Source of the DNA: Schmidtea nova
Lineage: Eukaryota
NCBI GenBank assembly: GCA_044892505.1
Contig: CM097883.1
Location: 18,786,001 to 18,850,000, forward strand
Length of the DNA: 64,000 nt
Direction: 5' to 3'
A model generated the notes under the pieces. The model saw only the letters and a program-made list of their open reading frames with translations. It ran no database searches and was not told the origin of the DNA. Below are positions 3,067 through 35,121 of the stretch, in pieces (positions within the stretch are counted from its first letter, which is position 1; each line of letters starts with the position of its first letter). The translations under genes were made by a program, and so were the position numbers.

Positions 3067-3224
3067 TTCCGACGATTTCATAATGATAATCAGTTAATAA
3101 ATATCGTAGTGTTGATGATTTGTCTTTGTTGTATTTTGTCCCGACCATAATTAGTAATTGTATATTTCTAAATAATGCTTTAACATAAGAGTAACAAACT
3201 ATTAAATCCGAATAAATTACAGAA

Positions 3225-6039: not shown

Positions 6040-6425
6040 TTAGATTAATTTTTTTGTTTTGTTTATCTTTTTTACTTTCCGAGTCATTAACTCGTTGTGG
6101 TATTCCGGCTTGTTGCGATGCAGGTAGTCAGTGTGGGCTAACAAGTTTGGAGTGGATTCTCCCGAACAATTCGACCCAATTCTTTCAACACGGAACTCAT
6201 GTCTGACATCATACTTGGCGCAAATGAGAGACGCCGGTCAGAAGAGTATCCGCATGATTTTCATATTAAAAGAAATGGCCACCAGTCAATGTGGTCCAAT
6301 CAAATTGCGAACACTAACCTAAAGCGCACATAAACTTTTTCAATTAAATTTTTTCTAAAAATTGTCAAATTCAAAGTGGTTTAGTGTCAGTAAATATATA
6401 GTAAAATTTGCAGTGACTGTTTAGT

Positions 6426-6588: not shown

Positions 6589-6592
6589 CGAT
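6589..6592. repeat. Target-site duplication CGAT (left)
   Basis: CGAT immediately precedes the 5' LTR and recurs at 36070-36073 immediately after the 3' LTR. Confidence 0.9.
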
Positions 6593-6963
6593 TGTTGGGC
6601 CAGCCAAATCGAGCAGCATCTGAAAATAATGTGCAATCAATAAAATAAATTAAATACAGAATAACAACAAAATAAATTACCAACACCAAAGCGTAACAAA
6701 ATAGGCGGCAACATCTAAAAGAAATAACATATTAATCAAAACAACAAAAATCTTCAAAACTCACTCATGCGAAGCAGATAAAATTGGAATATGACAGCGC
6801 GTGGGCGGATGTCACCGAAGACCTAAAGCAAAATCAAATAAAAATTAAATCATACAAAAAATAAACTTACCGCATGATTAACCAAACAAATCGGCGAGTT
6901 AAGTTAGGCAGCAAAAAGCCGACAACATGAAAAAAACGAAGCAAACATACACACATACTCGAT

Positions 6964-7002
6964 GCTGATTGGCTAACCAACAACACCGGTTCAGTATAAA
7001 TA
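6964..7002 (+). promoter_or_regulatory. LTR promoter: inverted CCAAT box (CTGATTGG) and TATA box (TATAAA 6995-7000)
   Basis: Canonical motifs and spacing; similar CCAAT-then-TATA arrangements occur in the related LTRs at about 5.6 kb and 42.9 kb (minus strand). Confidence 0.7.
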
Positions 7003-7093
7003 CTGAAGTAAAATCAGTATTTGGGAATGTCATTTTTACCGAGTGTAACTTGCAGTTGAGCATTGAGAACATTGTAAATCCAACTTGAAGAGA

Positions 7094-7107
7094 AATAAAA
7101 GGTAATT
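7094..7107 (+). promoter_or_regulatory. Poly(A) signal AATAAA abutting a 5' splice donor (AAG|GTAATT)
   Basis: AATAAA 7094-7099, GT 7102-7103. Related LTRs show AATAAAG|GTATGG and AATAAAG|GTATGT at the equivalent position. Confidence 0.65.
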
Positions 7108-8122
7108 TGGTGTTATGTTATTGATGTGTCTAAACCCTCATAATTGTTTATAACCATATTAAAATCCATAAGGTTTTCCGGAGGCCTAACAGCCTGACGG
7201 ATTCTCTGGCCTCTCAGCGCAACACAACCTTTCGGTTGTGAGGTGCTGATGCGGCGGGACCATAGGTGTACTAAATATTTGGAAAGCGGAAGGGGTTAAA
7301 TGCACATAGGGTATCGAGTAAGACCTAACGATCATGAATGAAATCAAGGTAGAAATGATCTAATATAAACGTTATGCATCACGATGATAGGGTATCGAGT
7401 ATAAACTAGTAGTCGTAAACGAGCGTAAAGTGAAGCCCGTTTGTTTTGGAAGGAGATATATTGTGGCGAAGTCTAGACGAGGGATAGACGTGTAGTGAAT
7501 AATATTAGGGTAAATGAATTAGGCGACGACGAGGGTAGGTATATGTCAACCTTAGCGCGTACGAGTTCGGGCATAGTGAACCTAGTATCAAGGGTTAAGG
7601 ATAATCGATAACCTCTGTCAGCTGTGTTTAGTCGCCAGGAGAGATGATAAATAAATCACAGGCATCGAGAACTGATAAAATGATGAACCCCAGTGAGTAA
7701 GTACCACAGGAACTTACGAGAATTACCCGACATGGGATGATCATTGCTGGTTAGATGAGGAAGTGATTGAGAACGACTGATGAAATTGAATGTAATAAAT
7801 AGTATTATCCATAAATAAAAACGGTGGTAGTTGAGTGATTGAACCTGATTGATGAGTATTAAGTATAATAGCGATATGATTAACAAATGCAACAAATCGT
7901 GCGTAGCTGAATCGTCGAAATAAAAAGCGGAGTACATTAGCTTCAAGCTATCATATAACACGACCCACATTAAGTCACCAACAATGATCCGGCAAAAATA
8001 CAGAATGTACCACTCAGACCTACAAAATTTCATAAATAATACGGGTGGGTCGACTAATATAAATAGGTCCGTTCTACCATAGAATCCGTAGAGTAAAAAC
8101 AACCATCTTCTTTAGAAATACT

Positions 8123-8758
8123 ATGGTGAAACTGGAGAGTTGCCGAGAGAAGCCGATGGTCGCGTACCCTATAAAGATAGAGAATACCATCCTTCGTAGG
8201 AAACGGCGCACCCGCTCCGTCCTCAGACCAAATACGAACCCAAATATCAGAGGAGAGAACGAAGCACCCCGAAAAGTTGTCGAAGTATCACGTCGCCACC
8301 TACGACGATGGATGAGGGCCCATATGAGCTCAGCCGCTAGCACCCCAGCTTGCACGTTTGAACTACAGTTGCGGTGGGAAGGAGATACCGATTGGGTACC
8401 CTCCTCGGATCGTATCAAGCCGGAAAATACCCGATGGTTTTATCAACTCCTAGATGAGTTAAAGCAACCCCGCTGGCTACTGAGTACCGGAATGATGTCC
8501 GGAAAAGAGCTACATCAACTCGGATACATGCTGCTAGACAGGCCTCGGTGTGGCGACACTGGGGAAGTCTTCGCCTACTCAAACGCGCCAGGAAGCGTGT
8601 CATTGGACCAACACCCCGAGCCCAAAGACCTTCGTCTCTGGGAGGTATTCATCTTTCGGGACAAGTTAAGTTGGAGCCCTGTCCCGGAGTTATACCATGA
8701 GAGCGGAATCCGTCGTGACGAGAACACGGCCGACCAGGAATTACGACCCTTCATCTAA
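8123..8758 (+). CDS. LTR-encoded ORF-A, 211 aa, unknown function, Arg-rich N-terminal motif
   Basis: Intact in both LTRs; four diverged homologues in the window conserve all or part of RHLRxW and RWEGDxxW. Confidence 0.8.
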   Translation: MVKLESCREKPMVAYPIKIENTILRRKRRTRSVLRPNTNPNIRGENEAPRKVVEVSRRHLRRWMRAHMSSAASTPACTFELQLRWEGDTDWVPSSDRIKPENTRWFYQLLDELKQPRWLLSTGMMSGKELHQLGYMLLDRPRCGDTGEVFAYSNAPGSVSLDQHPEPKDLRLWEVFIFRDKLSWSPVPELYHESGIRRDENTADQELRPFI

Positions 8759-8949
8759 ATCGCAAGGAAACCGATCCACCGAAGGAATATTTGATGTGTA
8801 TTAAAAATAAATGTATTAATTTTTGGGTTTTGTTATGTCTTTGAATGTATGAAGCGATCTGAGAGTGAAACACCTGTTTGATAATAAAGATAGCGACTGG
8901 GAGAACATACAAACCATACATAACCCGATTAATTATACATTTTACAGAG

Positions 8950-9513
8950 ATGAATGAACATCCAACTAGGAACTACAAACAAGAGGCAAAAGAGCATAAA
9001 GCTCGATCGCGAGTCCTAGAAAACCGCTTGCGGCAGCTAAACGAAGAGCACCAGCGAATTAAAGCCACGTGGTTCAACCCAGAGAGGGTTAAAACCATCC
9101 TGCAAGCCAGATACAGGGCGGAACGAACAATCGACGAGCAAGCTAGGGAGGTAGCAGCACTAAAGACGGAGCTGTCAAATTACTTGAGGGCATCAACTCA
9201 GGAGTTTATCACCGAGCAACTACGCCCAGTGATCAGGGCTAGCACCTTTAATCGGTGGGTGGACACAATATCGATGACAACAAGTACCCAAACGGAAATA
9301 GAAACCATCCCAATCACAACTACCCCAACGTCCCCAATAATTCTGGAAGGCTCGAAACGAACAAAGAGACGGAATCGCTTGGGAGCGAAAAAGCGTAGGG
9401 AGAGACGCGCATATGCGGATCGCCTAGGAATCGAAGTAGACTTGCTCAGTGGTCTATCTGAACAAGAACTACTAAATGTAATTCGACCCGCTGTATTGTT
9501 GAACTACAAATAA
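8950..9513 (+). CDS. LTR-encoded ORF-B (coiled coil, TSTQT motif, basic region); ATG at 8950 preferred over TTG at 8878
   Basis: Homologues at 3225-3821 and 40585-41142 start at the equivalent MN; acceptor-like TTTACAG precedes the ATG. Confidence 0.8.
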   Translation: MNEHPTRNYKQEAKEHKARSRVLENRLRQLNEEHQRIKATWFNPERVKTILQARYRAERTIDEQAREVAALKTELSNYLRASTQEFITEQLRPVIRASTFNRWVDTISMTTSTQTEIETIPITTTPTSPIILEGSKRTKRRNRLGAKKRRERRAYADRLGIEVDLLSGLSEQELLNVIRPAVLLNYK

Positions 9514-9903
9514 ATGTATAAAATGAATGATTTGACTTGTCTTGTTTGTTTGACGCATGTATGAGAATTAAAAGTAACAAAAACCTGGTTCATTTAAAGC
9601 TGCAGATATCTAAAAGGTAAATTACCCTAGGACAAAAGAAAAGAGCATAAGTGGGACCGAAAGAAAGCCACAGACACCTTCTATCGGTAGTGGTGGACCC
9701 GTGAATAAACAAGGGAATAGTAGCCGAAAGGTTGCTCACCTGCCTTGTCATTTCACAACGTTGACACAGTACCAACATGATGAGTAGTTAGGGATACATC
9801 ATGGGTGTCAGCGGGGGAATGTTTTTATGTTGGCGAGATCACCCTAACATATAAAATCATAACGATCTCCGTTGTCAATCTAACCAACACACCAGCATAA
9901 ATT

Positions 9904-9922
9904 TGGGGGCTCAGCCGGGATT
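9904..9922 (+). other. Primer binding site complementary to tRNA-Pro
   Basis: TGGGGGCTCAGCCGGGATT versus the tRNA-Pro/MLV-type PBS TGGGGGCTCGTCCGGGAT (2 mismatches); it starts after a 6-nt spacer following the LTR end. Confidence 0.8.
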
Positions 9923-10443
9923 AAATCGATCTTTGTGGGAAAAAGTGAATTCGATATCTGCGGACAGTTTAGAGCGCATGAACAGGGATGAAGTGAACTT
10001 AGCGAGGAAAAGTAAAGTAAATGATAACATAAGGTTTGAGGGTCCTGAAGCAAGAATGAATCGGGTTGAAAAATAATAAATAAAAGTATGAGTGTAAAAT
10101 AATGAGAATGATGAGCATGATAAAAGTATGCATGAGAACGAAAGTATGAATGTGGAAATATGAGGATGAATGAAGCAGGATGAATAGTATGTGGAGTGAC
10201 AGTATGAAAAGTGATGAAAAGTACACATGACGTAAAAGTATGATGAAAAGAGCGCATGAAAATGGTATGAGTATGAGCAACTAGCAATGATCATGTCGGG
10301 GCGACATTCAAGAACACGGGGAGATACGCAAGTAACGACGTAAAACAGAACAACAGAAAGCGAACAGTAGGGCTACCATAGAATAGGAATGATAAATAAT
10401 AAATAAAAATCGATAACAAAATTAACGAGAATTCATTCAGGGG

Positions 10444-10902
10444 ATGGAGAACAAAATAAAAGAAATGCAAACGTTTTTCGAAACAAACAACGAGACAGTG
10501 GAGACAATAACGAGAAAGTTAAAACGACTCGAGGTAGGAGAATATCACGAACCGACAAACAACACAGAAAGAGCCGAAAGGATGATGAGCTTAAGTGAGA
10601 ATAAGAACACAGTGGATACAGCAACACGATATCAGTGGTATAGAGAAAGATTAAACAACCCTGAGATGAATATCGAGTGTCACAGGCTAGAACAACAGTT
10701 AACAACAAAACACGATGAGTGGATAAGAATAACAACAGAACATACGAGACAATATCTGACGTGTCATATCTGTGAAATGAATAAGATACAGATAATGTTG
10801 TTGCCATGTGGGCATTTCCGATTCTGTAATGAATGTAAAATAAATGAACGATGTCCTATGTGCAACCTTCCCGTATCCGAGAAAATAACAGTGTACTTGT
10901 AA
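10444..10902 (+). CDS. Coiled-coil protein with C-terminal IAP/MDM2-type RING finger (putative E3 ligase)
   Basis: CHICEMNKIQIMLLPCGHFRFCNECKINERCPMCNLPVSEKITVYL-stop has the spacing and terminal position of IAP RINGs; no BIR domain is seen. Confidence 0.85.
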   Translation: MENKIKEMQTFFETNNETVETITRKLKRLEVGEYHEPTNNTERAERMMSLSENKNTVDTATRYQWYRERLNNPEMNIECHRLEQQLTTKHDEWIRITTEHTRQYLTCHICEMNKIQIMLLPCGHFRFCNECKINERCPMCNLPVSEKITVYL

Positions 10903-11599
10903 TAGAAATAAAGTTTTGAACAAGTGCAGTTGTTATTGAAATTATGAGGGTTTAAAGATGATTTGGTAAAAATGACCTAAGTAATTATGAGCTACTCACG
11001 AGTAGTCCGATAAGCACCCATTGGGGGGAACCAACTGATCAACTTACCCGAAATGTGTAGAAAGGGGCCAATCGCGGATATTGGAAAGCTCTTGTGATGT
11101 GATTGATCACCACATCGTGCATCAGTGGACCAATGCGATCTTTTTATATATTTTGGTTGGGGTGAAAGGTAGGGACAACTCAGCGAGGTTTAGGCGCGCG
11201 CAGAAAAAACTATAAAAAGAGGATGTTGAAACTGATCAGTAAAGAGAGAGAAAGCAACGAAATGAGTAAGATGAATAGCGAAACGTGGTATATGATGAAA
11301 GGCACGTAATCAGCTCGCATAAGGTAAAATCAAGTAGAAAGGTTGACGAATCGATAACAGAATAAAGGGGTGTAGTAGATGAGCCGAGTAAAGGGAAAAC
11401 TCGAGGATTAAATGAATTCCTTGAAAGAAAGGAAATGATAAAAGGGGTCCTAAAGAGAAAGGATTTGCCCATAGTTCTTGAAAGATAGAACTTAACGAAA
11501 CGCGACAATAGATTCTCCGAAGAAGCATAAGTGACCACTGGGAGGAACATCCCGAAGCAACACATGCAACCACTGAGAGATGATATTTCGAGTTTTCGT

Positions 11600-12180
11600 T
11601 CGTGAGCATAGGTCTCATAGTGAGCATAGGTCTCGTCATAAAACGTAACATCCTAGTGAGCGTAGGTCTCGTCATAAAACACAACACCAAAGTGAGCATA
11701 GTTCTCGTCCGAAAATATAAATCTCGTAGTGAGCAGAGTTCTCATTAATAAACACAAGACCAGCGAACATAGTCCTCATCAGTGAGCGTAGTTCTCATTA
11801 ATAAACATAGTCATTGTAGTGAGCTTAGTTCTCATCAGGAAACATAATTCCTGTAGTCACCATCAGTGAGCATAGTTCTCATCGGGGAACATAGTCCCCG
11901 GAGCAAAGAGTTTCCATCAGTAAGCAAAACCCTCATAACAACCATGTTTTGCCAGTGAGCATAGTTCTCGTCAGTGAGCATAGTTCTCGTCAGTGAGCAT
12001 AGTTCTCGTCAGTGAGCATAGTTCTCGTCAGTGAGCATAGTTCTCGTCAGCGAGCATAGTTCTCGTCAGTGAGCATAGTTCTCGTCAGTGAGCATAGTTC
12101 TCGTCAGCGAGCATAGTTCTCGTCAGTGAGCATAGTTCTCGTCAGTGAGCATAGTTCTCAACGGTGAGCATAGTTCTCGT
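11600..12180 (+). repeat. 19-bp tandem array CAGTGAGCATAGTTCTCGT (~12 contiguous copies, 11953-12180) with degenerate spaced copies upstream
   Basis: Unit starts at 11953, 11972, 11991, 12010 and so on to 12162; the GTGAGCATAG core recurs from about 11602. Confidence 0.95.
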
Positions 12181-12504
12181 TCGAAATAAAATATCGAGTA
12201 AAAGCCCACGAGAAAGACGACGAAGTGAGGCAGATGAGGACTAAATAAAACATAAAACTATCCGGATAGTGAAGATCAATAAGCGATAATAGAGATGAAT
12301 AATTGATAATGAGGATAAATGATGAGTAGTGAAAATGAATAGCGAATAATAAGGAATAAGGGTTGAAAGAAACCGAATTAATAACGAGAGAGTTGAAGGT
12401 GCGCACCTGGGTATTGATAAATGCGAGTAAAGCTGATTATGTGGCCTAATGATGTTAAAGTATGCATACAAGGAGGAGTAGCAAAGTAAAGTGAGTAAGT
12501 GGAG

Positions 12505-12973
12505 GGTGCTGACTGGAAAACCCAGCAGACCATGAGATTCGAGGGGAATAAAAGGAAACCGGTTTGTTAAGACAGGTAAAGTGGTAAAGACGCTAGCTGG
12601 AAAACCCAGCAGGTCAACGATAACGATCAAGAAAGATCGAGAGAATAAAAGTGAGTAATAATAAAGTGGTAAAATTGAGGACGCTGACTGGAAGACCCAG
12701 CAGGTCAAAAGTTATGATCATCGGAGTAACGAGCAGTTAAAAGTCGACAGTGAAGAGATAAAGGGTGGATAATAAGAGCGCTGACTGGAAAAACCCAGCA
12801 GGCTAATGAAACGACAATTGAGGTCGAGAATAATGAAGCAGAAGTAAAAGGTGAGATTAAAAGCGCTGACTGGAAAACCCAGCAGGCTAATGAGATAATG
12901 AGTGAAGTTGAAAGAACCAGAGTTCGAGATAAAAGGTGAGATTAAAAGCGCTGACTAGAAAACCCAGCAGGCC
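12505..12973 (+). repeat. Six dispersed copies of GCTGACTGGAAAACCCAGCAGG at ~85-90-nt spacing
   Basis: Copies near 12508, 12593, 12683, 12780, 12865 and 12949; each can fold as CUG-A-CUGG/AAAAC/CCAG-CAG. Confidence 0.85.
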
Positions 12974-13846
12974 AACGAGAGATGTCAGTTGAAGTAAAGG
13001 TGAGTAGAGATGAGAATTGAAATGAAGTAGTAAACGTAGTGCGAATAGGAGATAAAGCGAATAGTTGGGAAATAGAGTAGTAGACAGATAAGGGGGATTT
13101 GAACTCAGAGCCAGAGAAGCTTGAGAAAAGTAAAGGGGATAATAAGAGCGCTGAGCGACAAAGTAATTGGGGAACTGGGGAAAAGTAATTGGTGTATTTG
13201 AAAAAGAATAGATAATTGATGCGACTGCATAGATAATTTAAATAGACTTAAAATCAAGGGAAATGGGAAAAATGGGGATCTTCATGAATTATGACTACAC
13301 CCGTGAGAGGGACGAGAAACACGATAACGGGGACGTATCGTGTAAGTGATTATTTGTTTTAAGGAAACAAATCAATCAAGCAATTCAAAGCAATCTAGCA
13401 GTCAGAGCAATCAAAAGAAACAAATCAAAGAAGAAGCAAAGCAAAAGCGGAGTAGAAAAGCAGTTGAGAATATAAGCAGTTGAGGAATAGACAAAATTGA
13501 GGGACGAGAAACAAGATCAGGTATAATACCAATCTTAACGGAAGCAGAAAGAAAAGCAGCGAAAAGGACAAGAACAGGTAACAAGCCTAAGCAACAAAAG
13601 AACAAACAAGTAGAGATCAGCGATAATTCGAGTAATAAAGAGAATCAAGAAGAAACCCCAGAAGATCTAGAAGTACAAAACGAAGTAGAGACGATAGACA
13701 GTGAACTAGTCAGAGAAAACAGAACAAGAAGCGAATCAAGAGATAACGAAACAGAGAGTAGCGAAGAAGAAGAGTCGAATTCAGAAACAAGTGGTGAACT
13801 AGAATTAAAGAAAACTAGTACAGTATTCCAAGATAGTGGAATCGGG

Positions 13847-16513: not shown

Positions 16514-16555
16514 ACGAGACATTCAAATTTCAAGACGGACAAGCTAATTGCCAAG

Positions 16556-25500: not shown

Positions 25501-28500
25501 GCAGCACAAAGAAATAAGCAAGAGATATAAAGAGCTGATGGAAGCATTGAAATATGGACAATTCTTCAGACAAGCAGTGTATCAAGACCAACGGATGAAA
25601 CAGATGCAAACACGAATAAGAAGCAAAGCAGTGTTGTTCAGTGCAAAAGCCGATTATCAAGAGAGATTAGACGCAATCGTAGCAAAAGCACAGGAAAAAT
25701 TATCGGAATTCAAAGAGAATAAAAACTCGTTGGAAATACTAGGAGCAATTACAGAGAAAGTGCACAGATATGCACAAGGGGATTATAACGAGAGTGACAT
25801 AGAAACGATCAAGAATCAAATGCCAGTAGCATTCCTATTATCGAGGGATGGGAGATTGCCAATACACTGGGCATTACGTCGAAAGAAGGAAAACGAAGTG
25901 CTGGAAATAACGAAAGCGATGGTCAAGTGCGAAGCAGATATGAATACGGTTGATGATGATGGAGATACAATCATGATAATCGCAGCAAGAAAGAAGACGA
26001 ACTTTAAAGTGCTAAGTGAATTATACGAAGCAGGAGCAAGAATCGAAGGGAAAAATGGAAAGAATAATTCCATCATAGATATCGCAATACAATGGAACAA
26101 CTTTGAAATGATCAAGTTCATAAAGTCCATCAAGAGACAAGAGGACATAGAATACCTGGCGAATAACGTAAAGAATTTCAGTCTGACAGTAATGATACAC
26201 GACATAGAGAAAACGAGAGCATTACTAACATGGGTGAATCCGATCACCAAGGAACCGGCATTCAAGATCAATGACAATATGGAACAAAATCAGAATTGGT
26301 GTATCAGAAGCGCATTATTAAGACACAAAAAGCCAGAGATAGTAGAAGAATTCCTAAAGAGAAGAGATTTGAAATTCACGAACAATCCAAAGGAACAGGA
26401 ACGAATGGGAAGATGGAAAGAATTGTTCAGAAAATATGTAAATGAGTGGGCAAATGCCAAAGAAACAATCAAGCAAAGTAGACTAAAAGACATGGAACCA
26501 TTCAAAGAGATGGAAATACGTGAATTCGAGTCTAGCACACTCGCGGTTCAGGCGTATGAAAGATTGATTGAAGAAATTAATGTCGAGGACGACATTTTCA
26601 AAGGATCAGGGGGTGGTTACAGAGATTTCGACGACAAAAGCAACAACGAAGAGAACAACGAAGACAATGACAACAAAAGAACGGAGGATAATGAAAAAGA
26701 AAGACAAGAAGAACCGAAGCCAACGAGAAACGACAAGAAAAGAGAAGCAGAAGAACGAGAAAACAATGGAACAAAAGACGAACGTACAAACTATGGAAAA
26801 CGAACAGGAAGTCTACTTTTGAGACCGGAAATGTTGTGTATTGCGATATTGATAACAATCATCGGACAAGGAGAAGCCAAGAAACAATACGTCACGCTAG
26901 AGATAATCAGAGGAAATGAAATATATGAAAGAATATGCTGGAAAGAAAACCTGAAGAAAAACGATACGCTGAAGTGTATATTGTCAGATCTGAAGCGAGA
27001 CGTCATCCAAATCAAAGGATTGGAGAAAGAAAAGTCATACATAATATGCGCAATAAAGCAGAGAGGAGAACCAAAAGCACCTCAAGTAACTGCATGCCAA
27101 TTATACAAAGCAACGGAAGCGCTGAAGATACAGAAATGGATTGAGAAAAGAAGCGAAGAGACAACGAGAAGAACAGAAGTGGAATCAGAGAAAGGGAAGA
27201 ATCAATCTGAAGCAGAAGAAGGAATCAGAAACCGAACAGAGAAAGAAAGAATAACCAAAAATCCAGCGGGCAAATTAACATTCCAACCAGAATTGATATG
27301 TGTAGCATTAATATTAATCCTCATTAAGAGAATCATGGAGGACATAGATATCAGCGTGATGACGTTAGTAAACATCCAAGATCAACGAACAACGAATGGA
27401 AGATGTTGGGGACGAAACAATGAGGTAATTGGAATCAGCGAAACAAGAGAAATAGTAGAGGCGGAGACAAATGAGGAAATAGAGATAACTGAAATAGAGA
27501 CAGATAGAAAATATGAACTATGTCTCATGGAAAAGGCAGCAAACGGAAACAGACCAGGAACAAGCGAGTGTAAAGTGTTCCAAGCAAAGGAGATAATTGA
27601 ATTCCCAAAAAGAAAGAAACAAGATCAAGAAACGATTGCGAATGAAGTAGTAACCGTGGAGATAAAAAACATTGGTCGGAGAACAATTGGGATGTGTTGG
27701 AGAAAATACATCGGAGTATCGACCAGTCACGTACTACCGCAATGCAGAACGAGAGAACGAGGAATCCCGTTTCAACTAAATGGATTCGAAGTCGGACAAG
27801 CTTACGAAATTTGCGTAATCCGAAGAATAAGAGAAGTAATACAAAGAAGCCTGGAGTGCAGACTGTACAAGACGCCAGAGCAAATTAACGGTACAAGAAC
27901 GATCGAAATGGGAGGAAGTCGACAAAGGAAAAGAAAGTCAAGAAGAACCACGACAACCAACAGTCAAGGAACTCAACAGACAACAGAAGGGACGTCAACA
28001 AAAAACGAACCGGAATCAACGACCCTGATAATATGGAAGATCCATAAAAAGGTCCTAGAAATCTGTTGGACATTAATGCCAAACAGTATGAGAGAGTCTC
28101 CACGAAACTGTCAAAAGACATCAAATGACAAAAGGGAAACAATCGAGGTAGAAATGAGGAGGTTGAAAACAAACGCAGAATACGAAGTGTGTGCAATCGA
28201 AGAAGTAGACGCACAAGGAAATCAACAAGAAAGGTGCGAAACCTATTACACGCCAAGGAACATAACGATAAAAGGGGGAACCCGCAAGTTAGAATTCCGA
28301 GAATTGAGTCAGAAAAGAGAACAAACAGAGACGGAGGAAATACTACAAAATCAACAAGAAAGATGGGAACCCGAGAAAGTGATCGAAGAAGTCAGACAGA
28401 GACAACAACAATACAAACAATGGGAAGCGGAATGGAAAGGTCAATATGGCGTGATGATAAACCAAAGTGAAACTCCGAAGATGAGCATTGGGAAAACAAT

Positions 28501-28753
28501 AATGGGATTAATCAGCATGGGAGTATTCATAGGGTGTATACCACTGATAATGGTCATGATAGTATGTTGGAGATATGGCATGAGAAATAAGACCATAGCA
28601 GTAAAATGGCCAGACGTAAAGGTCATGAATTATAACATAAAACTACCAAAAGAAGTACGAGAAGAACTGAAAAGACGATCAAGACATGAAGAGATGTGGG
28701 TACAGATCGAGGACGAAGAACTGTACGAAGGAAAACCCGTGGTGATTGTATAG
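16556..28753 (+). CDS. pol: 4065-aa polyprotein: Ubl-Ubl-Bcl2like-SP-glycoprotein-TM-PR-RT-RNaseH-IN-ANK-ANK-FN3like x4-TM
   Basis: One uninterrupted ORF with IDTGA (PR), YIDD (RT), LATDAS (RH), H-H-C-C plus D-D-E and GPY (IN), and the extra domains listed separately. Confidence 0.95.
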   Translation: MGKEMFKRGEVSDLKITVRLPNEETKQIEVIPDSKVGEIVDVINETILQREREDEFEDDIAIKYKEHLLNERDERRAYKIGIWDNYQTIHVIRMDDVQRATPRDEERKKKRREDVMRKLRQIVEIYRNWQMKPEWETILGELDLNRRRLTPVERQWDNKEKCWKVKRGVYEEDPEGEDRYETNTKRICMVTRRILPTDLDGPETAVIWAELEKLKTSELIELLRGNTRGKRQTIKGLAQFIISNGEDITNLRKVAKAIAEYKRVNEWCPEQLDDVIKKWRNKEFAEETPQKIHLRIMYPNQRKEEFWVMLTEKVKSVKEKLMYELPFHLQHQGRSLDNNLEIWLTPVQLDLMNTLTVAQIVGQPLKFKEEKKAKGSMSTPSPMKSTMTPGTSSGQVRTTPIKTRERTPPEAYDVDEILTDSDEAIEELTKLTQKPTANIFDRIIQMPITSPAEIDDQGVEQEVVIEMVNDSEDEQGQPQFTQEMERWLEQRANEGRDVTEETGRATRFVETGTGMEKRPRGRPKIDPATTIPKSREERRQEQWETCLKKLDKIAEIRGKEENQVCQGEEWLTKTIMDVLAVIDPELKNLWRINEPSTKARMLHNAIAPIMPELIKAKTKSNHLDWQGTTMLIKKLLNGTETDSKYLVAISYTIYNLLTLSRGSPKSSPMGRHIKNTAMIIEKEIEPYILRKGGWEKFIKENQTKEGSNVMRKKLEGVLREMENRQTMQGNGRSTLNLNSIIMMMLVWLLSTEGVTIFEVFDCDQMKLGEKYSLRGTEQCKDATPVELKENKKEQWYHVYQEAELIKTMVNECKVQKTRFAFYCGRGHYSAIVMPGTEREPIVLQGEDCEALFKHGEVTTRDKIKIKGKPGMMLQQTYYVAGRITGGEGYCQGETYPIFGVPATNLVVMDTYIVELKSYEAFFEPTTGEMKTLSMCKIDRSMCQTGMSTLVYKPKVNECQLQLLQGTKFDEIQGKTFQEEDEDDKARAKHLKEALENKRQLKPDHREKRIEMRTTPTVLITTNQDVGMRFIKGKATLKCSTTVYETNYPGIYVSKQEVPNAKPKIDTMDIKLHLYVNNKMDFLFHRGQASLQKVYYDLINNDCILNREILKTKLAVAITNPDSAMPLLPLREGHFGRVVGEAMYVYICEKTHASLAATTQLKPGQCTNELEIDYKGKVRYVQPVTRIINPPGFEPNPFNCSNAYGPLYQKPDGKWVMFPGRTEVLAPREFELMQLSKDRQFSDVDVSNNGIYSPKDLEAARQNILFPARREALLSNIVTITGGTNYREGPNYELLLSPAHFKKATENMMKAMWGRFLIFGQMMAGILGVILIIQIVRVIITQMLACFDIYKREKKVNWKMVVGFLPFLAKTMVLHGHSKDIHRIKRLLKILAKMKGTNEDVGRKFKKIMQDEQARRQLKKERKGLWERVRGYRTQDDSSNDDDDDDDRGGQANINQIPQYTEKSAVENWRYSAPPQSMYNEPIYKAKPNMMQMMPMTSIYPIIPEGCKVKRGSSVNSLEDTHTIAVMSTNMGPILTTTVEINGREIEAMIDTGANISAIDINYIPEKNQGEIEKTNVHVIACSQETVEVAGRWFVKIRHRGAEINTYIAVIPSLSVPCIIGTDLMPDLFKEIVIDLGAMKLKDRTGKICRMKVKVASAEQIVVPARHEMMCYVKIDSTIKGDMVFEPSKKFEAKKELPMARELVTINQEGEIPINLVNFDEEDKIIYENEKLGKLTPMSEIEIPDKNEKSKDELPWKIDSVLLDERQKEQLQKLLMEYKDIFAASDLDLGTCDVTLHTIPLTDETPIALRPYKLAEAQKTVAEEEVQKMLDAEVIEPSCSPWQFPVVMVKKKDGTQRFCIDYRRLNAVTKRDTYPLPDINEMLLTLQGAAYFTSLDLKSGYWQIKMKDEDKEKTAFTIGRDLYQFKKMPFGLTNAPASFQRCMNFVTHGIKQCMVYIDDLLIYSATFEDHLQDIRNVFVKLRQWKLKLKPSKCDWAKEKVTFLGHIVSAKGKEPDPRNIEKVKECPPPKTVTQIQEFLGLCGYYRKFIKDYAGISKPMQELVRQDVSFVWGEEQQTAFETLRDKLITAPILVHPDFKKPFLLATDASGYAAGAVLGQFDEEGKERVIGYYSRTFRKHERNYSVTEREAYAIILAIKHFKYLLWGHEIYITTDHQPLVWLGQHKESSSRLMRWAMQLQEYSPFIKFKAGKANANADCMSRFTFPELVNLNAQKICALIAEDLDFSELRKDQLEDEELGLISKYLKEREMEIFGKNQTLREHMQKYQHRYVMEKGWLLIQDGERRLMCLPANRRKEIMTQYHDGKLGGHMSAKKTIGRLRQKYFWPTMEDDVKEWIKNCLTCATRKNVGTKWKTPLKPMPIPAEPMATIAMDVVGPLPESLKGNQYILVVTDYLTKFPEAFAIPDQKAKTVARILVEEICCRYGTPKKILTDQGTNFMSEILDEVTNYFRIAKLRTSPYHPQTNGQTERFNGTLIRMLSNYVSKHQTDWDEYINLCLMAYRMSIHAATKLSPFQLMYGRDCNLPIDLEYQPPLSQYMEVDDYVTKFKERMQEIWKTAELNIKFYQESYKDLHDQKKNVKAHDLKVGDWVIIETPEIIPVTVKKLQRPGKGPYEITTVNENNVRVRLVNNPLVRPIYVNACRCRKIPKTATLSPEKRVMTRSQTARINMLRIQQKSQTSLEDNQREIIDIKELAKKTREIIPEWKRWHDFNILSEVRKNVMDYAKDRTAHPITRTLLEEIPQTLNLQDKDGNTALHNAIEHSGNEKVKEIVEMILEGGGEIDKVNWEGITPLMMMTIHGRNDEIIKLFGNTRSNWLTKDKEGRTFLNHAIDRANHRILKYITENATWEIDELTRGSIMKQAIGVKNSKTWRILLKWKRPEGDSWVVNCNEVFTRGENALLKHLLEVTYDPKTLAVLIARDTLRVSENPREYKLEDRKKELFGLIKKWCDKQWNPDMSFEHFYDIQKQHKEISKRYKELMEALKYGQFFRQAVYQDQRMKQMQTRIRSKAVLFSAKADYQERLDAIVAKAQEKLSEFKENKNSLEILGAITEKVHRYAQGDYNESDIETIKNQMPVAFLLSRDGRLPIHWALRRKKENEVLEITKAMVKCEADMNTVDDDGDTIMIIAARKKTNFKVLSELYEAGARIEGKNGKNNSIIDIAIQWNNFEMIKFIKSIKRQEDIEYLANNVKNFSLTVMIHDIEKTRALLTWVNPITKEPAFKINDNMEQNQNWCIRSALLRHKKPEIVEEFLKRRDLKFTNNPKEQERMGRWKELFRKYVNEWANAKETIKQSRLKDMEPFKEMEIREFESSTLAVQAYERLIEEINVEDDIFKGSGGGYRDFDDKSNNEENNEDNDNKRTEDNEKERQEEPKPTRNDKKREAEERENNGTKDERTNYGKRTGSLLLRPEMLCIAILITIIGQGEAKKQYVTLEIIRGNEIYERICWKENLKKNDTLKCILSDLKRDVIQIKGLEKEKSYIICAIKQRGEPKAPQVTACQLYKATEALKIQKWIEKRSEETTRRTEVESEKGKNQSEAEEGIRNRTEKERITKNPAGKLTFQPELICVALILILIKRIMEDIDISVMTLVNIQDQRTTNGRCWGRNNEVIGISETREIVEAETNEEIEITEIETDRKYELCLMEKAANGNRPGTSECKVFQAKEIIEFPKRKKQDQETIANEVVTVEIKNIGRRTIGMCWRKYIGVSTSHVLPQCRTRERGIPFQLNGFEVGQAYEICVIRRIREVIQRSLECRLYKTPEQINGTRTIEMGGSRQRKRKSRRTTTTNSQGTQQTTEGTSTKNEPESTTLIIWKIHKKVLEICWTLMPNSMRESPRNCQKTSNDKRETIEVEMRRLKTNAEYEVCAIEEVDAQGNQQERCETYYTPRNITIKGGTRKLEFRELSQKREQTETEEILQNQQERWEPEKVIEEVRQRQQQYKQWEAEWKGQYGVMINQSETPKMSIGKTIMGLISMGVFIGCIPLIMVMIVCWRYGMRNKTIAVKWPDVKVMNYNIKLPKEVREELKRRSRHEEMWVQIEDEELYEGKPVVIV
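18180..18660 (+). other. Bcl-2-family-like domain in the polyprotein
   Basis: EIEPYILRKGGWEKFIK resembles BH2 (Bcl-xL HLEPWIQENGGWDTFVE). KYLVAIS sits at the Bcl-xL spacing of GRIVAFF, but the NWGR signature is lost. Confidence 0.65.
18760..20680 (+). other. env: Signal peptide + chuvirus/herpes-gB-type (class III-like) envelope glycoprotein + TM
   Basis: IIMMMLVWLLSTEG signal; FEVFDC...YSL...C; YQEAELIKTMVNECKVQKTRFAFYCGRGHYS; Cys-rich ectodomain; MWGRFLIFGQMMAGILGVILIIQIVRVII anchor. These resemble Chuviridae G proteins as I recall them. Confidence 0.8.
21140..24520 (+). other. Protease, reverse transcriptase, RNase H and integrase core of the polyprotein
   Basis: DTG 21203-21211; YIDD 22418-22429; TDAS about 22862; integrase HHCC about 23510-23640, IAMDVVGPL, LTDQGTNF, GQTERFN, GPY about 24435. 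Confidence 0.97.
24830..26130 (+). other. Two ankyrin-repeat clusters C-terminal to integrase
   Basis: QDKDGNTALHNAI, VNWEGITPLMMM and KDKEGRTFLNHAI (about 24830-25130); SRDGRLPIHWAL, DDDGDTIMIIAA and NGKNNSIIDIAI (about 25830-26130). Confidence 0.85.
26820..28580 (+). other. Membrane-protein module: two signal-like hydrophobic segments, four Cys-containing FN3-like repeats, C-terminal TM
   Basis: Repeats with CW...(L/I/F)xxxxxYx(I/L/V)C...C at about 26885, 27350, 27645 and 28020; RPEMLCIAILITII and QPELICVALILILI segments; TM IMGLISMGVFIGCIPLIMVMIVCW. Confidence 0.6.
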
Positions 28754-28877
28754 AGGGTGGAATATGAGTGTAAATAATAGTGTAAAAACCAATGCATAAC
28801 CGTATACGTATGGGTATAAATATTATAAAACATAAAAACAGAAAAAAAGAGAATGATGTATATAATCTAGAAAAACA

Positions 28878-29228
28878 ATGAACCAAGAAAATATCGAGAT
28901 GTCAACGATGACAAGATGGAAAGTGCAATGTGACCTGCTAGCCAGAACAGTAAACGAATTACAGAGCCAGTTGACGGCCAAAACGCAATTATTAACCGAA
29001 AGTTATAACTGTAATTTCGAAGCAATGAACAAAATCGAGATCCAACAAATACAGATAAACGAATTACAGAACGAGAACCGAACATTGAATGAAGTGAACA
29101 ATTGGCAAGCAGAGGAAATTGACCGATTAACGAGACATGAAGAGGAAGAGATACCGGACAGTTGGACGAGCTGGATTGTAAATGAGATAGACGTGTATCC
29201 AGAGCCAGATTCAACTGAGGATGTATAG
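28878..29228 (+). CDS. 116-aa coiled-coil accessory protein
   Basis: Intact ATG-TAG ORF with the element's codon bias, heptad-like Q/E/L pattern, ending PEPDSTEDV. Confidence 0.7.
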   Translation: MNQENIEMSTMTRWKVQCDLLARTVNELQSQLTAKTQLLTESYNCNFEAMNKIEIQQIQINELQNENRTLNEVNNWQAEEIDRLTRHEEEEIPDSWTSWIVNEIDVYPEPDSTEDV

Positions 29229-29319
29229 TGAATAAGCGGAAAATTGTGTAAATACGTGTAAATAAAGAACCAGAAAAAAATCAAAAATATGGGGAAATTG
29301 ATGTAAATATTGTTGTAGA

Positions 29320-30732
29320 ATGAGAGCAGAAAGTGAAGCAGATTACCAAACAATCGAGATCCTAAGAGGAGAGAATCGACAATGGGGAGTAAATGTGACG
29401 TGTGTAAAGTGTAAAAATCTACTGTTAAAACCGAGGCAAACGGAATGTGGATGCAGGATGTGCACCAAGTGTATATTGCAAATAATCAGTGAAAGTGAGA
29501 CAAGAAAGTGTCCAGAGTGTGACGATAAACTACTAATCAACGAGACGAAACCAGACAAAGCAATCCAAAAGGAGATCTGGAAGATAAAAACAGAGTGTAT
29601 AAACCAACCATGCGAATGGAAAGGACAAATAATCGAACTAAGACAACATCTGGAGAAATGCGAAAACAAGAAAGCAACATGTGAAAAGTGTCAACAGACG
29701 ATAACCATCAAGCAGTTGAAAAGTCACAAGAACGAGTGCAAAGCAGAGATAATAGAGTGTCAATACTGCAAACAAAGAGAGACGAGAGAAGTAATCGAAA
29801 CAGAACATCTCAACGTAGCAGAAGAGAAAGTGTGTGGAAAATTCAGAGGAATTTGTCCAAGTAATTGTGGAGCCAGAGAAGAGGTGATGTTGAAAGAACA
29901 TTGGGAACAGTGCGAATCAAGACCAAGAAAGTGCGTATGGAGTAAACAAGGATGTGTAGTAAAGAAAACGAGCAAAGAGATGAAAGAGCATTTGGAAACG
30001 GAAACAGTACAACACGCCGAGATGTTAACAGCAAATTTGAACGGAATGGAACAAACCATACAGAAGCTGGGAAAAGAAATCGAATCTCAGAGAATAATGA
30101 CGGAGCTGTTACTAGAAACAAGAGAGCAATTCGAGCTCACCAGAGAGAAAATGATGGAGAAAATCAAAGTCATAGAGACGCTAGTAAAAGAAGTAAACGT
30201 GCGGCATCAAATGTGGGTGCGAGATGCAGAGGATATCGAGAGTTTACCTGTTGCACTATATATATGGAAAATCAAGAATTTCAACGAAAAGTTCGCAGCA
30301 GCAAAAGCAGGAAGTCAGGTGTCGGTAACAAGTCCACCATTCTATCTGTGGAAAAATGGATACAAAGTTCGAATGAGAATTTATCCAAATGGAGATGGAT
30401 CGGGAAAGGAAACGCATGTGTCATTATTCTTCGCGTTGTGTAAAGGTGGTTACGACGACATATTAGAATGGCCGCTAGAAACAAAGGCTATAATGAGAGT
30501 GAAAAACTCGAAAGAAACAATAGCGAGAATATTCAAAATTGATGGTAAGCACGAAGCTTACAAAAGACCGACCACAGAATGTTCATTAGCGACTGGAGAA
30601 CCAAAATTCATACCACACCAAACCATGTGGGAAATGTTGTACGACGACAACTTATATGTAGAGTTGGAGATCGAAAAGAAAGCAAGTACAACAATGATGA
30701 ACACGAAGTCAACGAAAGGATGGTTGGAATAG
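29320..30732 (+). CDS. TRAF: TRAF-like protein (RING, TRAF zinc fingers, coiled coil, MATH/TRAF-C domain), intronless
   Basis: CVKCKNLLLKPRQTECGCRMCTKC...CPEC RING; CEWKG...HLEKC zinc fingers; YIWKIKNF...SPPFY...GYKVRMRIYPNGDGSGKETHVSLFF...DDILEWP MATH. Confidence 0.93.
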   Translation: MRAESEADYQTIEILRGENRQWGVNVTCVKCKNLLLKPRQTECGCRMCTKCILQIISESETRKCPECDDKLLINETKPDKAIQKEIWKIKTECINQPCEWKGQIIELRQHLEKCENKKATCEKCQQTITIKQLKSHKNECKAEIIECQYCKQRETREVIETEHLNVAEEKVCGKFRGICPSNCGAREEVMLKEHWEQCESRPRKCVWSKQGCVVKKTSKEMKEHLETETVQHAEMLTANLNGMEQTIQKLGKEIESQRIMTELLLETREQFELTREKMMEKIKVIETLVKEVNVRHQMWVRDAEDIESLPVALYIWKIKNFNEKFAAAKAGSQVSVTSPPFYLWKNGYKVRMRIYPNGDGSGKETHVSLFFALCKGGYDDILEWPLETKAIMRVKNSKETIARIFKIDGKHEAYKRPTTECSLATGEPKFIPHQTMWEMLYDDNLYVELEIEKKASTTMMNTKSTKGWLE

Positions 30733-30821
30733 TCAGAATGAACGACCCTGTAAATAAAGTGTAAAAATCGACGACAACAATAAACGTATAGTATAACAAG
30801 TGTAAATTTGTAAATTACAGA

Positions 30822-31961
30822 ATGGAAAACGCAAATGAACATGTAATCGAAGATGAAACGAGAAACGAAATGGCGAACGAACGAGAAGCAATGGAAAGAG
30901 AAATCGAAAGGAGATGTAAAGTGGAAGTAGAACAAAGAACCAGGGAATTACACGAAGTGATGACAAACAATTTCTACGAGAAACTAAAATGCGAGAGACG
31001 AATAGAGTTATACCAACTAGAACTCGAGGAAGTGAATAAAGAGATGATACAACTGACAGCACAAATAGAGAAGCTAAAAGGAACGAATGTACGAAGTCGA
31101 CTGAAGATAGAAGAGGTCTATCAGTTGATGAGAAAACAAGCGGAACACTACCGGAAGATGATGAAAACGCGAAGAGAAGAGCAGGAGAAACAAGAGGAAA
31201 AGATGGAGGTAAAAATACTAGCAATCAAGGCTCAAGCGAGACATTGGAAAATGGAGTCGAAACGAGTGTATAAAGAAGCCAAAGAGATAATCAGAAAGAC
31301 AGCATACAGCGAAGATTGGAAACTGTATCAAGAGATAGACGAATTGAAAGAGGAATTGGAACAGAGAAAGCGACAAGAACAAGCAAACAAAGAATGGAGT
31401 CGAAAACGACAGCGATTTATTCGAGAACAGGCAAAGGAACTAAAGAAAACGCAATGGCAAATACAGATGATAAATGGAGAAATGCGAGGCATTAGACAAA
31501 AAGAGGAAGCGGAAAGACAAAAGTTGATCAGGGAAAAAGAAAGCTTGGAAAGAGATGTAAATGGTTATCAAGGGGTGGTGACCCAAAAGAAAATGGAATT
31601 GAAAGCTGTGAAGGAAAGACATGCGGAATCAAACCAAGCGTATGAGGAAAATATAACGAATTTGACGAAAGAAAACGAAGAACTGAAACAGCAGATAATA
31701 ACCCTGAAAGCAGAGAAAGAACCAACAGAAACAGAAGCCCTGAAGAGAAAAGTGGAAGAAATGGAAAGACAAATCGAAACTCTGAGCGAACAATCAGACT
31801 ATATGGAGTATCTGTTAGACGAGGAAATACAAACCTCGAGAACGTATCAAAACGAAATCGCAATGTGGAGAAGCAGAGTGGTGTGGTTACCGTTTATACC
31901 ACCACCACCAATGGAACTCCAAGATGAAGGGTTCCATGAACCAGAGGAGACGGATGTGTAA
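30822..31961 (+). CDS. 379-aa long coiled-coil accessory protein ending in ETDV
   Basis: Intact ORF, E/K/R/Q-rich heptads, C-terminal PPPP and EPEETDV. Confidence 0.75.
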   Translation: MENANEHVIEDETRNEMANEREAMEREIERRCKVEVEQRTRELHEVMTNNFYEKLKCERRIELYQLELEEVNKEMIQLTAQIEKLKGTNVRSRLKIEEVYQLMRKQAEHYRKMMKTRREEQEKQEEKMEVKILAIKAQARHWKMESKRVYKEAKEIIRKTAYSEDWKLYQEIDELKEELEQRKRQEQANKEWSRKRQRFIREQAKELKKTQWQIQMINGEMRGIRQKEEAERQKLIREKESLERDVNGYQGVVTQKKMELKAVKERHAESNQAYEENITNLTKENEELKQQIITLKAEKEPTETEALKRKVEEMERQIETLSEQSDYMEYLLDEEIQTSRTYQNEIAMWRSRVVWLPFIPPPPMELQDEGFHEPEETDV

Positions 31962-32034
31962 AAAGAGGCGAAAAATCCGTGTGTAAAAATGTACAAATCG
32001 ATGTAACAGGTATTAATCAGTAGAATAATCAGAA

Positions 32035-32559
32035 ATGAACTGGCTCAAAATCCTACCAATCCTAACGATTATGTTAACTACAACAACAATGAACTGTTCA
32101 ACAACCGAAATCCAAAGAACCCTGTCAAATGAGATATCCCAAGAGATTGAAAAACAACTAAACGAAGTCAGAGAAGACTTGAAACAATTAATACGACAAA
32201 TGCGAATCAGTCATGATCATCGCAAACCCTTGCAAACCCTATTCAATCAAATCGAGAAGATCCGAGAAATCCATAAAACCTTTCAAGATCACCTAAAGCC
32301 AATCAAAGGTCAAACCCAAATCGAATCCGAAATCCGAAACAGATGGATCATCGTTGGAATAGTCACAATGACAATAGTAACAATCATCCTGATCATCGTG
32401 ATCACATATACCCTATATCGAATCAGAAGCCTCAAACAACAACAAACGATAATGTGTAGATGCGTCAAAAGAGAAGCAAAAACCCAACAAAGAATGAGAA
32501 GCCATCTACGACAAATTCAAGCCCAATACGAAATGCAGTCAACAAGTGAAAGGACCTGA
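32035..32559 (+). CDS. 174-aa predicted type I membrane protein (signal peptide, helical ectodomain, TM, basic tail)
   Basis: MNWLKILPILTIMLTTTTMNC signal; WIIVGIVTMTIVTIILIIVITYTLY TM. Confidence 0.75.
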   Translation: MNWLKILPILTIMLTTTTMNCSTTEIQRTLSNEISQEIEKQLNEVREDLKQLIRQMRISHDHRKPLQTLFNQIEKIREIHKTFQDHLKPIKGQTQIESEIRNRWIIVGIVTMTIVTIILIIVITYTLYRIRSLKQQQTIMCRCVKREAKTQQRMRSHLRQIQAQYEMQSTSERT

Positions 32560-32733
32560 AAATCAACCCCTATGAGCCAGAAACATTGAACTGTGTATAA
32601 ACAATAAAAACATGACAATGACAATGTGTGACTTTGTATAAATGGGTATGAAAGCTACCACCTTATGTGGTTTTGCATGTAAGTTCTGTCACGAACTTTT
32701 TAGGTATGTTGATGTAGGTATATGCATGTAATT

Positions 32734-32764
32734 GCGGGACGCAATTTTAGGGGACCCCGAGTGA
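32734..32764 (+). other. Degenerate polypurine-tract region before the 3' LTR
   Basis: GCGGGACGCAATTTTAGGGGACCCCGAGTGA resembles the CGGGACG...TTTT..GGGG pre-LTR motif of Gypsy elements but is not purine-pure. Confidence 0.5.
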
Positions 32765-34930: not shown

Positions 34931-35121
34931 ATCGCAAGGAAACCGATCCACCGAAGGAATATTTGATGTGTATTAAAAATAAATGTATTAATTTTTGGGT
35001 TTTGTTATGTCTTTGAATGTATGAAGCGATCTGAGAGTGAAACACCTGTTTGATAATAAAGATAGCGACTGGGAGAACATACAAACCATACATAACCCGA
35101 TTAATTATACATTTTACAGAG

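Follow-up and report, generated by a model that had tools for sequence, protein, structure and literature searches.

Predicted splicing of a short LTR leader to the genes of a giant Burro-like Gypsy element in Schmidtea nova

The element and its genes

The stretch of the Schmidtea nova genome analysed here (the window, 64,000 nt) contains a 29,477-bp Burro-like Gypsy element with LTRs of 3.3 kb, each of which carries two genes, L1 and L2 (Table 1). The gag-pol frame of this copy is interrupted by in-frame stops at 13961 and 16511. In the polyprotein, Pfam places PF24664 at residues 1009-1350, protease at 1536-1626 and reverse transcriptase at 1848-2006, followed by RNase H and integrase; the order is PR-RT-RH-IN, and the Env/fusion region lies between gag and protease in the frame of gag. 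CCHC knuckles, ankyrin repeats, and RING and MATH/TRAF cargo are also encoded. BIR and BCL2-like motifs gave no Pfam match at E<=0.01 in the nine element ORFs scanned, and Rfam at gathering scores gave no match within the window. The best matches of the RT region in a similarity search were two polyproteins that are 50-51% identical and have this fusion domain too; the matches included no named Burro sequence, and the named neighbours were invertebrate Gypsy-like proteins. A search with the fusion domain returned a smaller Gypsy family and no further giant families. The primer-binding-site-like sequence is presumably that of tRNA-Pro.

Searches for homologues, families and folds gave no match for L1 or L2. 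Both proteins carry basic stretches, and L2 (187 aa) is predicted to be all-helical with a basic C-terminal stretch. Median dN/dS is 0.19 for L1 and 0.095 for L2, and synonymous divergence among LTR copies is often greater than 1. The last ORF of the element has hydrophobic stretches.

Table 1. Features of the element and of neighbouring LTR-like copies, in window coordinates
Feature	Position	Strand	Acceptor AG ends at (nt 5' of ATG)	Details
F4 divergent LTR-like copy	770-3821	+		donor-like 879/880; ORFs 2584-3066 (one internal stop) and 3225-3821
F2 truncated LTR-like copy	4207-6040	-		donor 5471/5470; L1-like fragment from 4470
4-bp target-site duplication	6589-6592 and 36070-36073			flanks element
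5' LTR	6593-9897	+		3305 bp, TG...CA; 99.9% identity with 3' LTR
Predicted promoter	6968-7018	+		inverted CCAAT box 6968-6972; TATA box 6995-7003; initiator-like word 7014-7018
Predicted leader exon	7016-7101	+		about 86 nt; ends in AATAAA (7094-7099) plus AG
First intron	7102-8115	+		1014 nt, GT...AG, within LTR
LTR gene L1	8123-8758	+	8115 (7)	211 aa; AATAAA at 8806
L2 unit	8935-9514	+	8947 (2)	L2 8950-9513; AATAAA overlaps stop
Primer-binding-site-like sequence	9904-9921	+
RING-finger unit	10430-10912	+	10440 (3)	ORF 10444-10902; AATAAA 10907
gag acceptor-like site	13350-13846	+	13363	then 483 nt ATG-free up to gag ATG
Gag-Env-PR-RT-RH-IN-ankyrin frame	13847-28753	+
116-aa ORF unit (o1)	28860-29266	+	28870 (7)	ORF 28878-29228; AATAAA 29261
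TRAF unit	29305-30784	+	29318 (1)	RING/zinc-finger/MATH ORF 29320-30732; AATAAA 30753, 30779
379-aa charged ORF	30808-31961	+	30820 (1)	ORF 30822-31961
Last ORF	32020-32608	+	32032 (2)	174 aa, 32035-32559; weakest acceptor; AATAAA 32603
3' LTR	32765-36069	+		repeats donor 33273/33274, L1 34295-34930, L2 35122-35685
F3 lone LTR-like copy	40192-43315	-		donor 42817/42816; broken L1 homologue from 41992; L2 homologue 41142-40585

Leader, donor and candidate acceptors

Transcription is inferred to start at about 7016, within a predicted promoter (6968-7018) with CCAAT, TATA and initiator-like motifs. The predicted leader exon carries one short upstream ORF that is absent from two other families. 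A sequence-only reading of the window had reported AATAAA followed directly by AG|GT in three LTR families; the motifs are where it placed them, but those at 5477 and 42823 read AATAAAG|GT, the hexamer itself supplying the A of the donor AG. The three donors pair with the 5' end of the genome's own U1 at 7 of 11 positions. Among 71 distinct CCAAT+TATA promoters in the loci examined, 59 have the hexamer followed by G|GT; of the other 12, seven have an altered hexamer and keep a GT donor, two are intron-less copies, two are unrelated and one is unassigned. One family, F4, keeps the donor without an adjacent hexamer. Competition of donor use with polyadenylation, as had been proposed, is plausible at most, since the overlap is not universal. 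Folding of the leader in its 5' and 3' contexts gave no clear switch, and the recombination points of eight mosaic LTR copies, scattered between -224 and +347 relative to the donor, do not map the 3' end of the RNA to the 7094 hexamer.

AG-ending acceptor-like sites had also been reported 0-8 nt before the ATGs of the seven accessory ORFs, and all of them are present, at distances of 1-7 nt. Those of L1 and L2 belong to ORFs that lie inside the LTR and so recur at 34295 and 35122, and the homologous ORFs at 2584 and 3225, which do have the motifs, are on the plus strand in a fourth LTR family (F4), where no AATAAA adjoins the donor-like site. A plain AG at this distance precedes 383 of the 622 other plus-strand ATGs of the element (62%) and is barely informative, because the element is A-rich. 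YAG, in contrast, precedes all seven accessory ATGs against a background of 145/622 (23%; binomial P ~4e-5). Unrelated long ORFs in the loci examined served as a rough control, in which many ATGs are not real starts: YAG precedes the first ATG in 10 of 34, and the hAT ATG at 49648 has one too, as had been noted. Pyrimidines are scarce at the acceptors of the 3' ORFs, where they fill 3-6 of 11 positions.

Conservation was counted in 41 LTR copies chosen by L2 protein similarity; these are related, and the counts are not independent events. YAG is kept in 40/41 copies for L1 and in 40/41 for L2, in acceptor regions that exchange CAG and TAG, have a pyrimidine tract and include 29 (L1) and 30 (L2) distinct upstream 22-mers, and AATAAA follows L1 in 31/41 and L2 in 40/41. 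The acceptors mostly persist in F4, two full-length elements of which encode 3' proteins 34-59% identical to those of the window element. Both have YAG for gag, o1 and TRAF, and one each has it for the 379-aa ORF and for RING; the last ORF has AAG or GAG in both, RING has AAG in one, and one of the elements is without one spacer.

To the earlier list we add the acceptor-like site at 13363, before gag, and the AATAAA that follows most ORFs. The ATG-free stretch 3' of the gag acceptor is also present in both F4 elements and was matched in 1 of 5000 shuffles. On unspliced RNA the gag ATG is preceded by 143 others, counted from the start site, and splicing would explain how gag and the other ORFs are translated. 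An AATAAA lies at most 50 nt from the stop in five of the seven accessory ORFs, so the ORFs look like alternative terminal exons. The spacers between the 3' ORFs, put at 73-124 nt by the sequence-only reading, measure 124, 91, 89 and 73 nt; all four are under 125 nt and two contain AATAAA, while the canonical hexamer was not found in the spacer 3' of the 379-aa ORF.

Intron-less copies and the expression of the element

Two elements elsewhere in the genome (L153/L155 and L164+L165) are without the intron between the donor and the L1 acceptor, exactly at GT and AG, and thereby fix the 3' end of the leader at 7101. All 12 close relative LTRs bear a GT...AG intron of 836-944 nt at the same spot. 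In L164/L165 the intron is absent from both LTRs, which are 99.91% identical, and the primer site and target duplication are present. The leaders of the two intron-less elements are 77% alike and each is closer (88-92%) to intron-bearing relatives, so that the two losses are likely to be separate. The same element also has an ordinary deletion, which used a 13-nt repeat; the splice junction has only AG. The best reading of the intron-less elements is that they were copied from cis-spliced RNA, and on this reading spliced RNA of such an element can be copied back and inserted into the genome. It is likely that splicing takes place at least from the donor to the L1 acceptor, the first of the series. 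Newly described here are the gag acceptor with its ATG-free stretch and the AATAAA after most ORFs.

The fossil junctions concern the L1 acceptor only. Junction probes for the other seven acceptors gave no real match; the evidence from this is weak, since a splice located beyond the primer-binding site is not normally copyable. Leader-L2 probes gave 0/4 and 0/18 real matches, leader-RING/gag 0/2 and leader to the 116-aa ORF and last ORF 0/3; there were no matches for the leader joined to the TRAF or 379-aa ORF, to the first ORF of F4, or behind the upstream motif of spliced-leader (SL) relics. The window-type leader followed by a non-G base gave no match, a short-hexamer leader joined to L1 gave none among 30 examined of 62 matches, and in one probe set 23 of 24 matches were due to chance. 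Four contig runs of unknown kind, aligned to 24001-36600, had no GT-AG joint at the predicted sites among the 15 listed of 35 joints, a neutral result.

The sequence-only reading had a leader spliced to every ORF. This is borne out for the first acceptor by the two intron-less elements, and for the other seven it is a prediction. We think it probable that the LTR promoter gives a single long transcript, that the leader exon ending at 7101 is cis-spliced to one of eight acceptors, and that the ORFs serve as alternative terminal exons, each carrying a poly(A) signal of its own. The introns removed in joining the leader to L2, RING, gag and the four 3' ORFs would measure 1.8 to 24.9 kb, use would be made of the poly(A) signals inside the element, and binding of U1 would let full-length genomic RNA run past the 7094 hexamer. 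Against this, the acceptors of the 3' ORFs would need 22-25-kb introns that skip four upstream acceptors and several AATAAA.

We consider rather unlikely a mixed system in which the LTR genes are cis-spliced and the tightly packed 3' ORFs are operon-like, with 3'-end cleavage in each spacer and trans-splicing of the host SL at the next YAG. The genome has SL-RNA genes (three copies in L266) whose 42-nt exon ends in ATG and which have a GT donor, an Sm-like site and hairpins, and 10 of the 26 distinct SL relics of the host have their first ATG within 8 nt, the same geometry as in the element ORFs. The 73-124-nt spacers, with AATAAA 40-65 nt before the AG, fall below the 300-nt limit for operons, and in flatworms cis- and trans-splicing often have acceptors in common (PMC12582326, in part). 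Both fossils, however, join L1 to the LTR leader and not to the SL, and conservation of the donor extends to copies that have lost the hexamer. None among 100 listed of 284 SL-relic matches starts like an element ORF and a probe for three other exon starts in the relics found none, both weak tests on a small, redundant relic set. Trans-splicing, which had been named as the alternative, is not the sole route for the first ORF but may serve the 3' cluster; if it operates there, one mobile element would use cis- and trans-splicing side by side.

Foamy viruses express their accessory genes from an internal promoter. It is improbable that the 3' ORFs here depend on such a promoter, or on a nearer donor or second leader exon, instead of directly on the LTR donor. 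Donor-like words in the ATG-free stretch 3' of the gag acceptor could form a second non-coding exon, and a CCAAT+TATA-like pair lies in the window's spacer between pol and the first 3' ORF; this pair is absent from both F4 elements, though the rest of the spacer aligns, and we rejected it as a promoter. That AG before ATG is chance or a host-general start context, and the intron-less copies DNA deletions, is highly improbable: plain AG is common and the hAT ATG and 10/34 unrelated ORFs have YAG, but YAG is enriched before the accessory ATGs, CAG and TAG exchange among LTR copies, and two separate deletions would each have had to stop precisely at GT and AG, with a repeat of just 2 nt.

With cis-splicing from the LTR leader as the preferred reading, exact junctions and 3' ends are now predicted for the accessory genes. 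Two conserved proteins could be made from each of the many lone LTR-like copies and, if the reading is true, even lone LTRs would be complete spliced two-gene units. Integrated spliced copies offer a DNA record of splicing where RNA data are lacking.

Comparison with known systems

Burro and GYPSM1 are giant Gypsy-like elements of planarians, of more than 30 kb (PMC6431247). The window element resembles them in its size of about 30 kb (at 29,477 bp, slightly below the figure quoted), its single huge polyprotein, in which a fusion-glycoprotein region separates gag from protease, its CCHC knuckles, ankyrin repeats, RING and MATH/TRAF cargo and its accessory ORFs (PMC6431247). It differs in having TRAF as a separate 3' ORF, no BIR detected and two genes inside the LTR. 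The cargo of Burro elements belongs to the apoptosis and ubiquitin pathways, and one such element reportedly protects the stem cells of planarians (cited in a part of PMC13465017). The section of PMC6431247 on Burro elements has nothing on expression of accessory ORFs, and among literature titles and opening abstracts none concerned splicing in these elements; a 2026 paper on Burro1 IAP and the 2018 genome paper may describe it.

The likeness to complex retroviruses that had been drawn fits only in part. It may hold for the one cap-proximal donor, whose splice the fossils support for the first acceptor and which is predicted to serve the rest. In those viruses a single poly(A) site in the 3' LTR serves every mRNA, and the sequence here argues against that, with AATAAA after most ORFs (an own signal in 5/7 accessory ORFs). 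Such viruses also encode a regulator of splicing or export; in the window element L1 and L2 have basic stretches but match no known family, homologue or fold. Retroviridae also have a separate env gene, whereas here the Env region is inside the polyprotein and the RT neighbours are Gypsy-like. In foamy viruses the major splice donor lies in R beside the poly(A) signal, and, as in the window element, donor and signal are in both LTRs, where binding of U1 could suppress 5'-LTR polyadenylation (PMC3694450, in part); the foamy donor is upstream of the signal, whereas that of the window element directly follows or overlaps the hexamer. The window element is moreover of Gypsy type, and an internal promoter is not supported.

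In Arabidopsis the Ty1/Copia element EVD produces a subgenomic mRNA by coupling splicing to premature termination at an internal poly(A) site, and U1 protects its full-length RNA (PMC5580714, in part). It is likewise an LTR retrotransposon, but it has one intron and one subgenomic RNA, whereas up to eight acceptors and at least five internal signals are predicted here. Flatworm SL operons share the short spacers, the poly(A) signal, the acceptor just 5' of the ATG and the host SL-RNA genes (PMC12582326, in part); the sole fossil-supported splice, in contrast, uses the element's own leader in cis.

Tentatively, the whole may be an adenovirus-late-like programme, in which one leader is joined to eight terminal exons, two of them within the LTR, across up to 25 kb and the 3' cluster may also borrow the host's spliced-leader machinery. 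From a single promoter, the adenovirus major late unit joins a short leader to many alternative acceptors and uses several poly(A) sites within about 25 kb; adenovirus is an unrelated DNA virus, and the analogy is functional only.

Organization of the element

Between the two LTRs of the window element lie a RING ORF, a gag-env-protease-RT-RNase H-integrase-ankyrin frame, which is interrupted at 13961 and 16511 in the window copy, and four 3' ORFs including one that is TRAF-like. The element is flanked by a 4-bp target duplication and, beyond this, by three related LTR-like families (F2, F3 and the divergent F4). It matches the planarian Burro elements as described in PMC6431247, except that those have a BIR domain and none was detected in the window element. 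Two of the ORFs, L1 and L2, sit within the LTR itself; neither has detectable relatives, and both are under purifying selection, with a median dN/dS, measured against the window copy, of 0.19 for L1 and 0.095 for L2. Burro-like relatives are also present in other assemblies, where two unnamed database polyproteins (P0037 and P0039, 4057 and 3865 aa) carry gag, a fusion domain, protease, RT and integrase, and are 50-51% identical to the window element in the RT region.

Positions of the features discussed (window coordinates unless a locus is named)
Feature	Position	Strand	Remark
LTR pair, direct repeats of 3305 bp	6593-9897 and 32765-36069	+	99.9% identical, self-comparison
Leader donor	7101/7102		follows AATAAA
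L1	8123		within LTR
L2	8950		within LTR
Tandem repeat arrays	11590-12200 and 12500-13000		between RING ORF and gag
Gag acceptor-like site	13363		followed by 483 nt without ATG
Open frame upstream of gag ATG	13484-13846		121 codons
Gene fragment	1150-1953	-	within predicted intron of F4 LTR copy; presumably chaperonin-like
Broken hAT-like transposase	49648-51838		strong acceptor-like site 2 nt ahead of its ATG
Intron-less stomatin/Band 7 ORF, 388 aa	52895-54061		adjoins 21-nt tandem array at about 54780-56700
SL-RNA genes, three copies (exon, GT donor, Sm-like site, hairpins)	L266:534, 4162 and a third		third on reverse strand

The leader donor and its splice to L1

Upstream of the donor is a CCAAT-TATA-initiator-like promoter that is conserved, and the hexamer AATAAA lies 85-159 nt past the TATA box. 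Hexamer and G|GT occur together at 59 of the 71 distinct promoters of this type among the loci examined, some of which were retrieved with donor-containing queries, while 40 retrieved by the L2 protein are free of that bias. The remaining 12 comprise seven with a GT donor and an altered hexamer, two intron-less copies, two unrelated sequences and one that could not be assigned. The three donors named in the sequence-only reading pair with the 5' end of the genome's own U1 at 7 of 11 positions. GT is kept where the hexamer is altered, so the donor is the more constant of the two, and F4 donors lack the adjacent hexamer. The proposed link between donor use and polyadenylation is thus not general, but the foamy viruses (PMC3694450) offer an analogy that makes it plausible. 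The LTRs of two sets of genomic loci (L091-L130 and L166-L177) are subfamily mosaics, and in 8 of 66 segments a clear switch from one subfamily to another falls close to promoter and donor.

A junction-pattern search of the genome gave 24 matches, compared with 10 for the control; 23 were unrelated and one, locus L153, was real. L153 belongs to a 5'-truncated element, of which it is the 3' LTR; it matches the window LTR up to precisely 7101 and then runs into L1. A DNA search with this junction led to a second element (loci L164 and L165), both LTRs of which are intron-less and 99.91% identical to each other; a primer site follows the LTR, the same 3' tract as in the window precedes it, and a 4-bp duplication flanks the whole. 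All 12 LTRs retrieved from close relatives (11 elements) have a GT...AG intron of 836-944 nt at the same spot. Between the two intron-less elements the leaders are 77% alike, but compared with a relative that has the intron the likeness is 88-92% for either leader, which suggests two separate loss events, though recombination could blur this comparison. Another deletion in the L164/L165 element used a 13-nt repeat; the splice junction shares AG only. These copies are most simply read as reverse transcripts of a cis-spliced RNA, and as judged from sequence the cis-splice of the leader to L1 is documented by two integrated copies. The proposal that a leader is spliced to each ORF is supported for L1, and for the other ORFs it is an extension.

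Acceptors, predicted terminal exons and the trans-splicing alternative

The claim that AG precedes the ORFs more often than background fails for plain AG, which is not beyond chance (383/622 other ATGs), but stands for YAG, found before 7/7 accessory ATGs vs 145/622 others (P about 4e-5; 31/116 for non-coding ATGs alone). In 41 LTR copies, which were picked by L2 protein similarity and are mutually related, LTR pairs included, YAG is kept in 40 before L1 and in 40 before L2, with exchange of CAG and TAG and a retained pyrimidine tract; synonymous divergence among these copies is often >1. The internal acceptors are all unchanged in seven other window-family copies, but these are 93-100% identical and so little informative. 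A better test is provided by two full-length F4 elements with the same gene order, in which YAG is kept in both for gag, the first 3' ORF and TRAF, and in one element each for RING and the 379-aa ORF, while the last ORF has AAG or GAG at the acceptor position and no YAG. The acceptor and donor signals are both genuine and conserved.

The acceptor-like site of gag had been missed. An ATG-free run as long as the one behind it arose in 1 of 5000 shuffles, and both F4 elements have a canonical YAG at this site, with 615 and 679 ATG-free nt ahead of the gag ATG; on unspliced RNA, 143 ATGs would precede gag. The gag frame is open for 121 codons upstream of its ATG in 8/8 copies, and in F4 the open stretch spans 127-176 codons. 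It may reflect a non-AUG start or an additional exon, and donor-like words within it could make a second leader exon.

Also missed was an AATAAA no more than 50 nt from the stop in 5/7 accessory ORFs, conserved in 31/41 copies for L1 and 40/41 for L2, and TGTA is 7-13 times denser in the 3' spacers than in the pol frame. From these signals, each ORF looks like an alternative terminal exon. Under this plan the LTR leader would be cis-spliced to all ORFs, beyond L1, an extension that we regard as fairly probable.

Host spliced-leader (SL) trans-splicing, which the sequence-only reading gave as the alternative, may instead resolve the ORFs of the 3' cluster. The genome has SL-RNA genes. The 3' spacers qualify by the criterion for flatworm operons in PMC12582326, according to which one acceptor often serves both cis- and trans-splicing. 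For L1 trans-splicing would not be the only route, since the fossil junction joins the element's own leader. No element ORF is found among the SL relics examined, a small set (100 of 284 matches in one listing, and none in a further probe). Genomic fossil junctions for the 3' cluster were probed and none found; none are expected, because those splices remove the primer site.

The end of the SL exon has 1045 exact genome matches, most of those examined being joined to differing host-like mRNA starts. Dispersed SL-exon copies (loci L061-L090 and L254-L265) are each fused to such a start and share a sequence of about 105 nt upstream; several fusions have been amplified as subfamilies, and some translations resemble what we take to be MO25, CIAO1 and UFL1. 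They look like the product of a mobile element capturing trans-spliced mRNAs. PMC12582326 also mentions partial-leader loci close to retroelements.

Comparison with other elements and viruses

A smaller Gypsy family (loci L021-L048) has LTRs of about 850 bp, an RT 48% identical and a fusion domain also in its polyprotein. Its 3' accessory ORF has TTTTAG 3-6 nt ahead of the ATG and AATAAA after the ORF, and in one subfamily the LTR has an AATAAA with a GT word behind it. From these features, the expression plan may predate the giant elements. In the literature searched, we found no description of splicing in these elements; the 2026 Burro1 and 2018 genome papers or their supplements, outside that search, may report such transcripts. 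Elements of this type are known, and there are precedents elsewhere for each of the mechanisms; for the combination, which here includes an intron and two genes of the LTR, we have found no description. The predicted plan resembles the adenovirus late unit more than HIV. It also resembles, in multiplied form, the splice-plus-termination scheme of Copia, as outlined in PMC5580714, and this too is closer than HIV.
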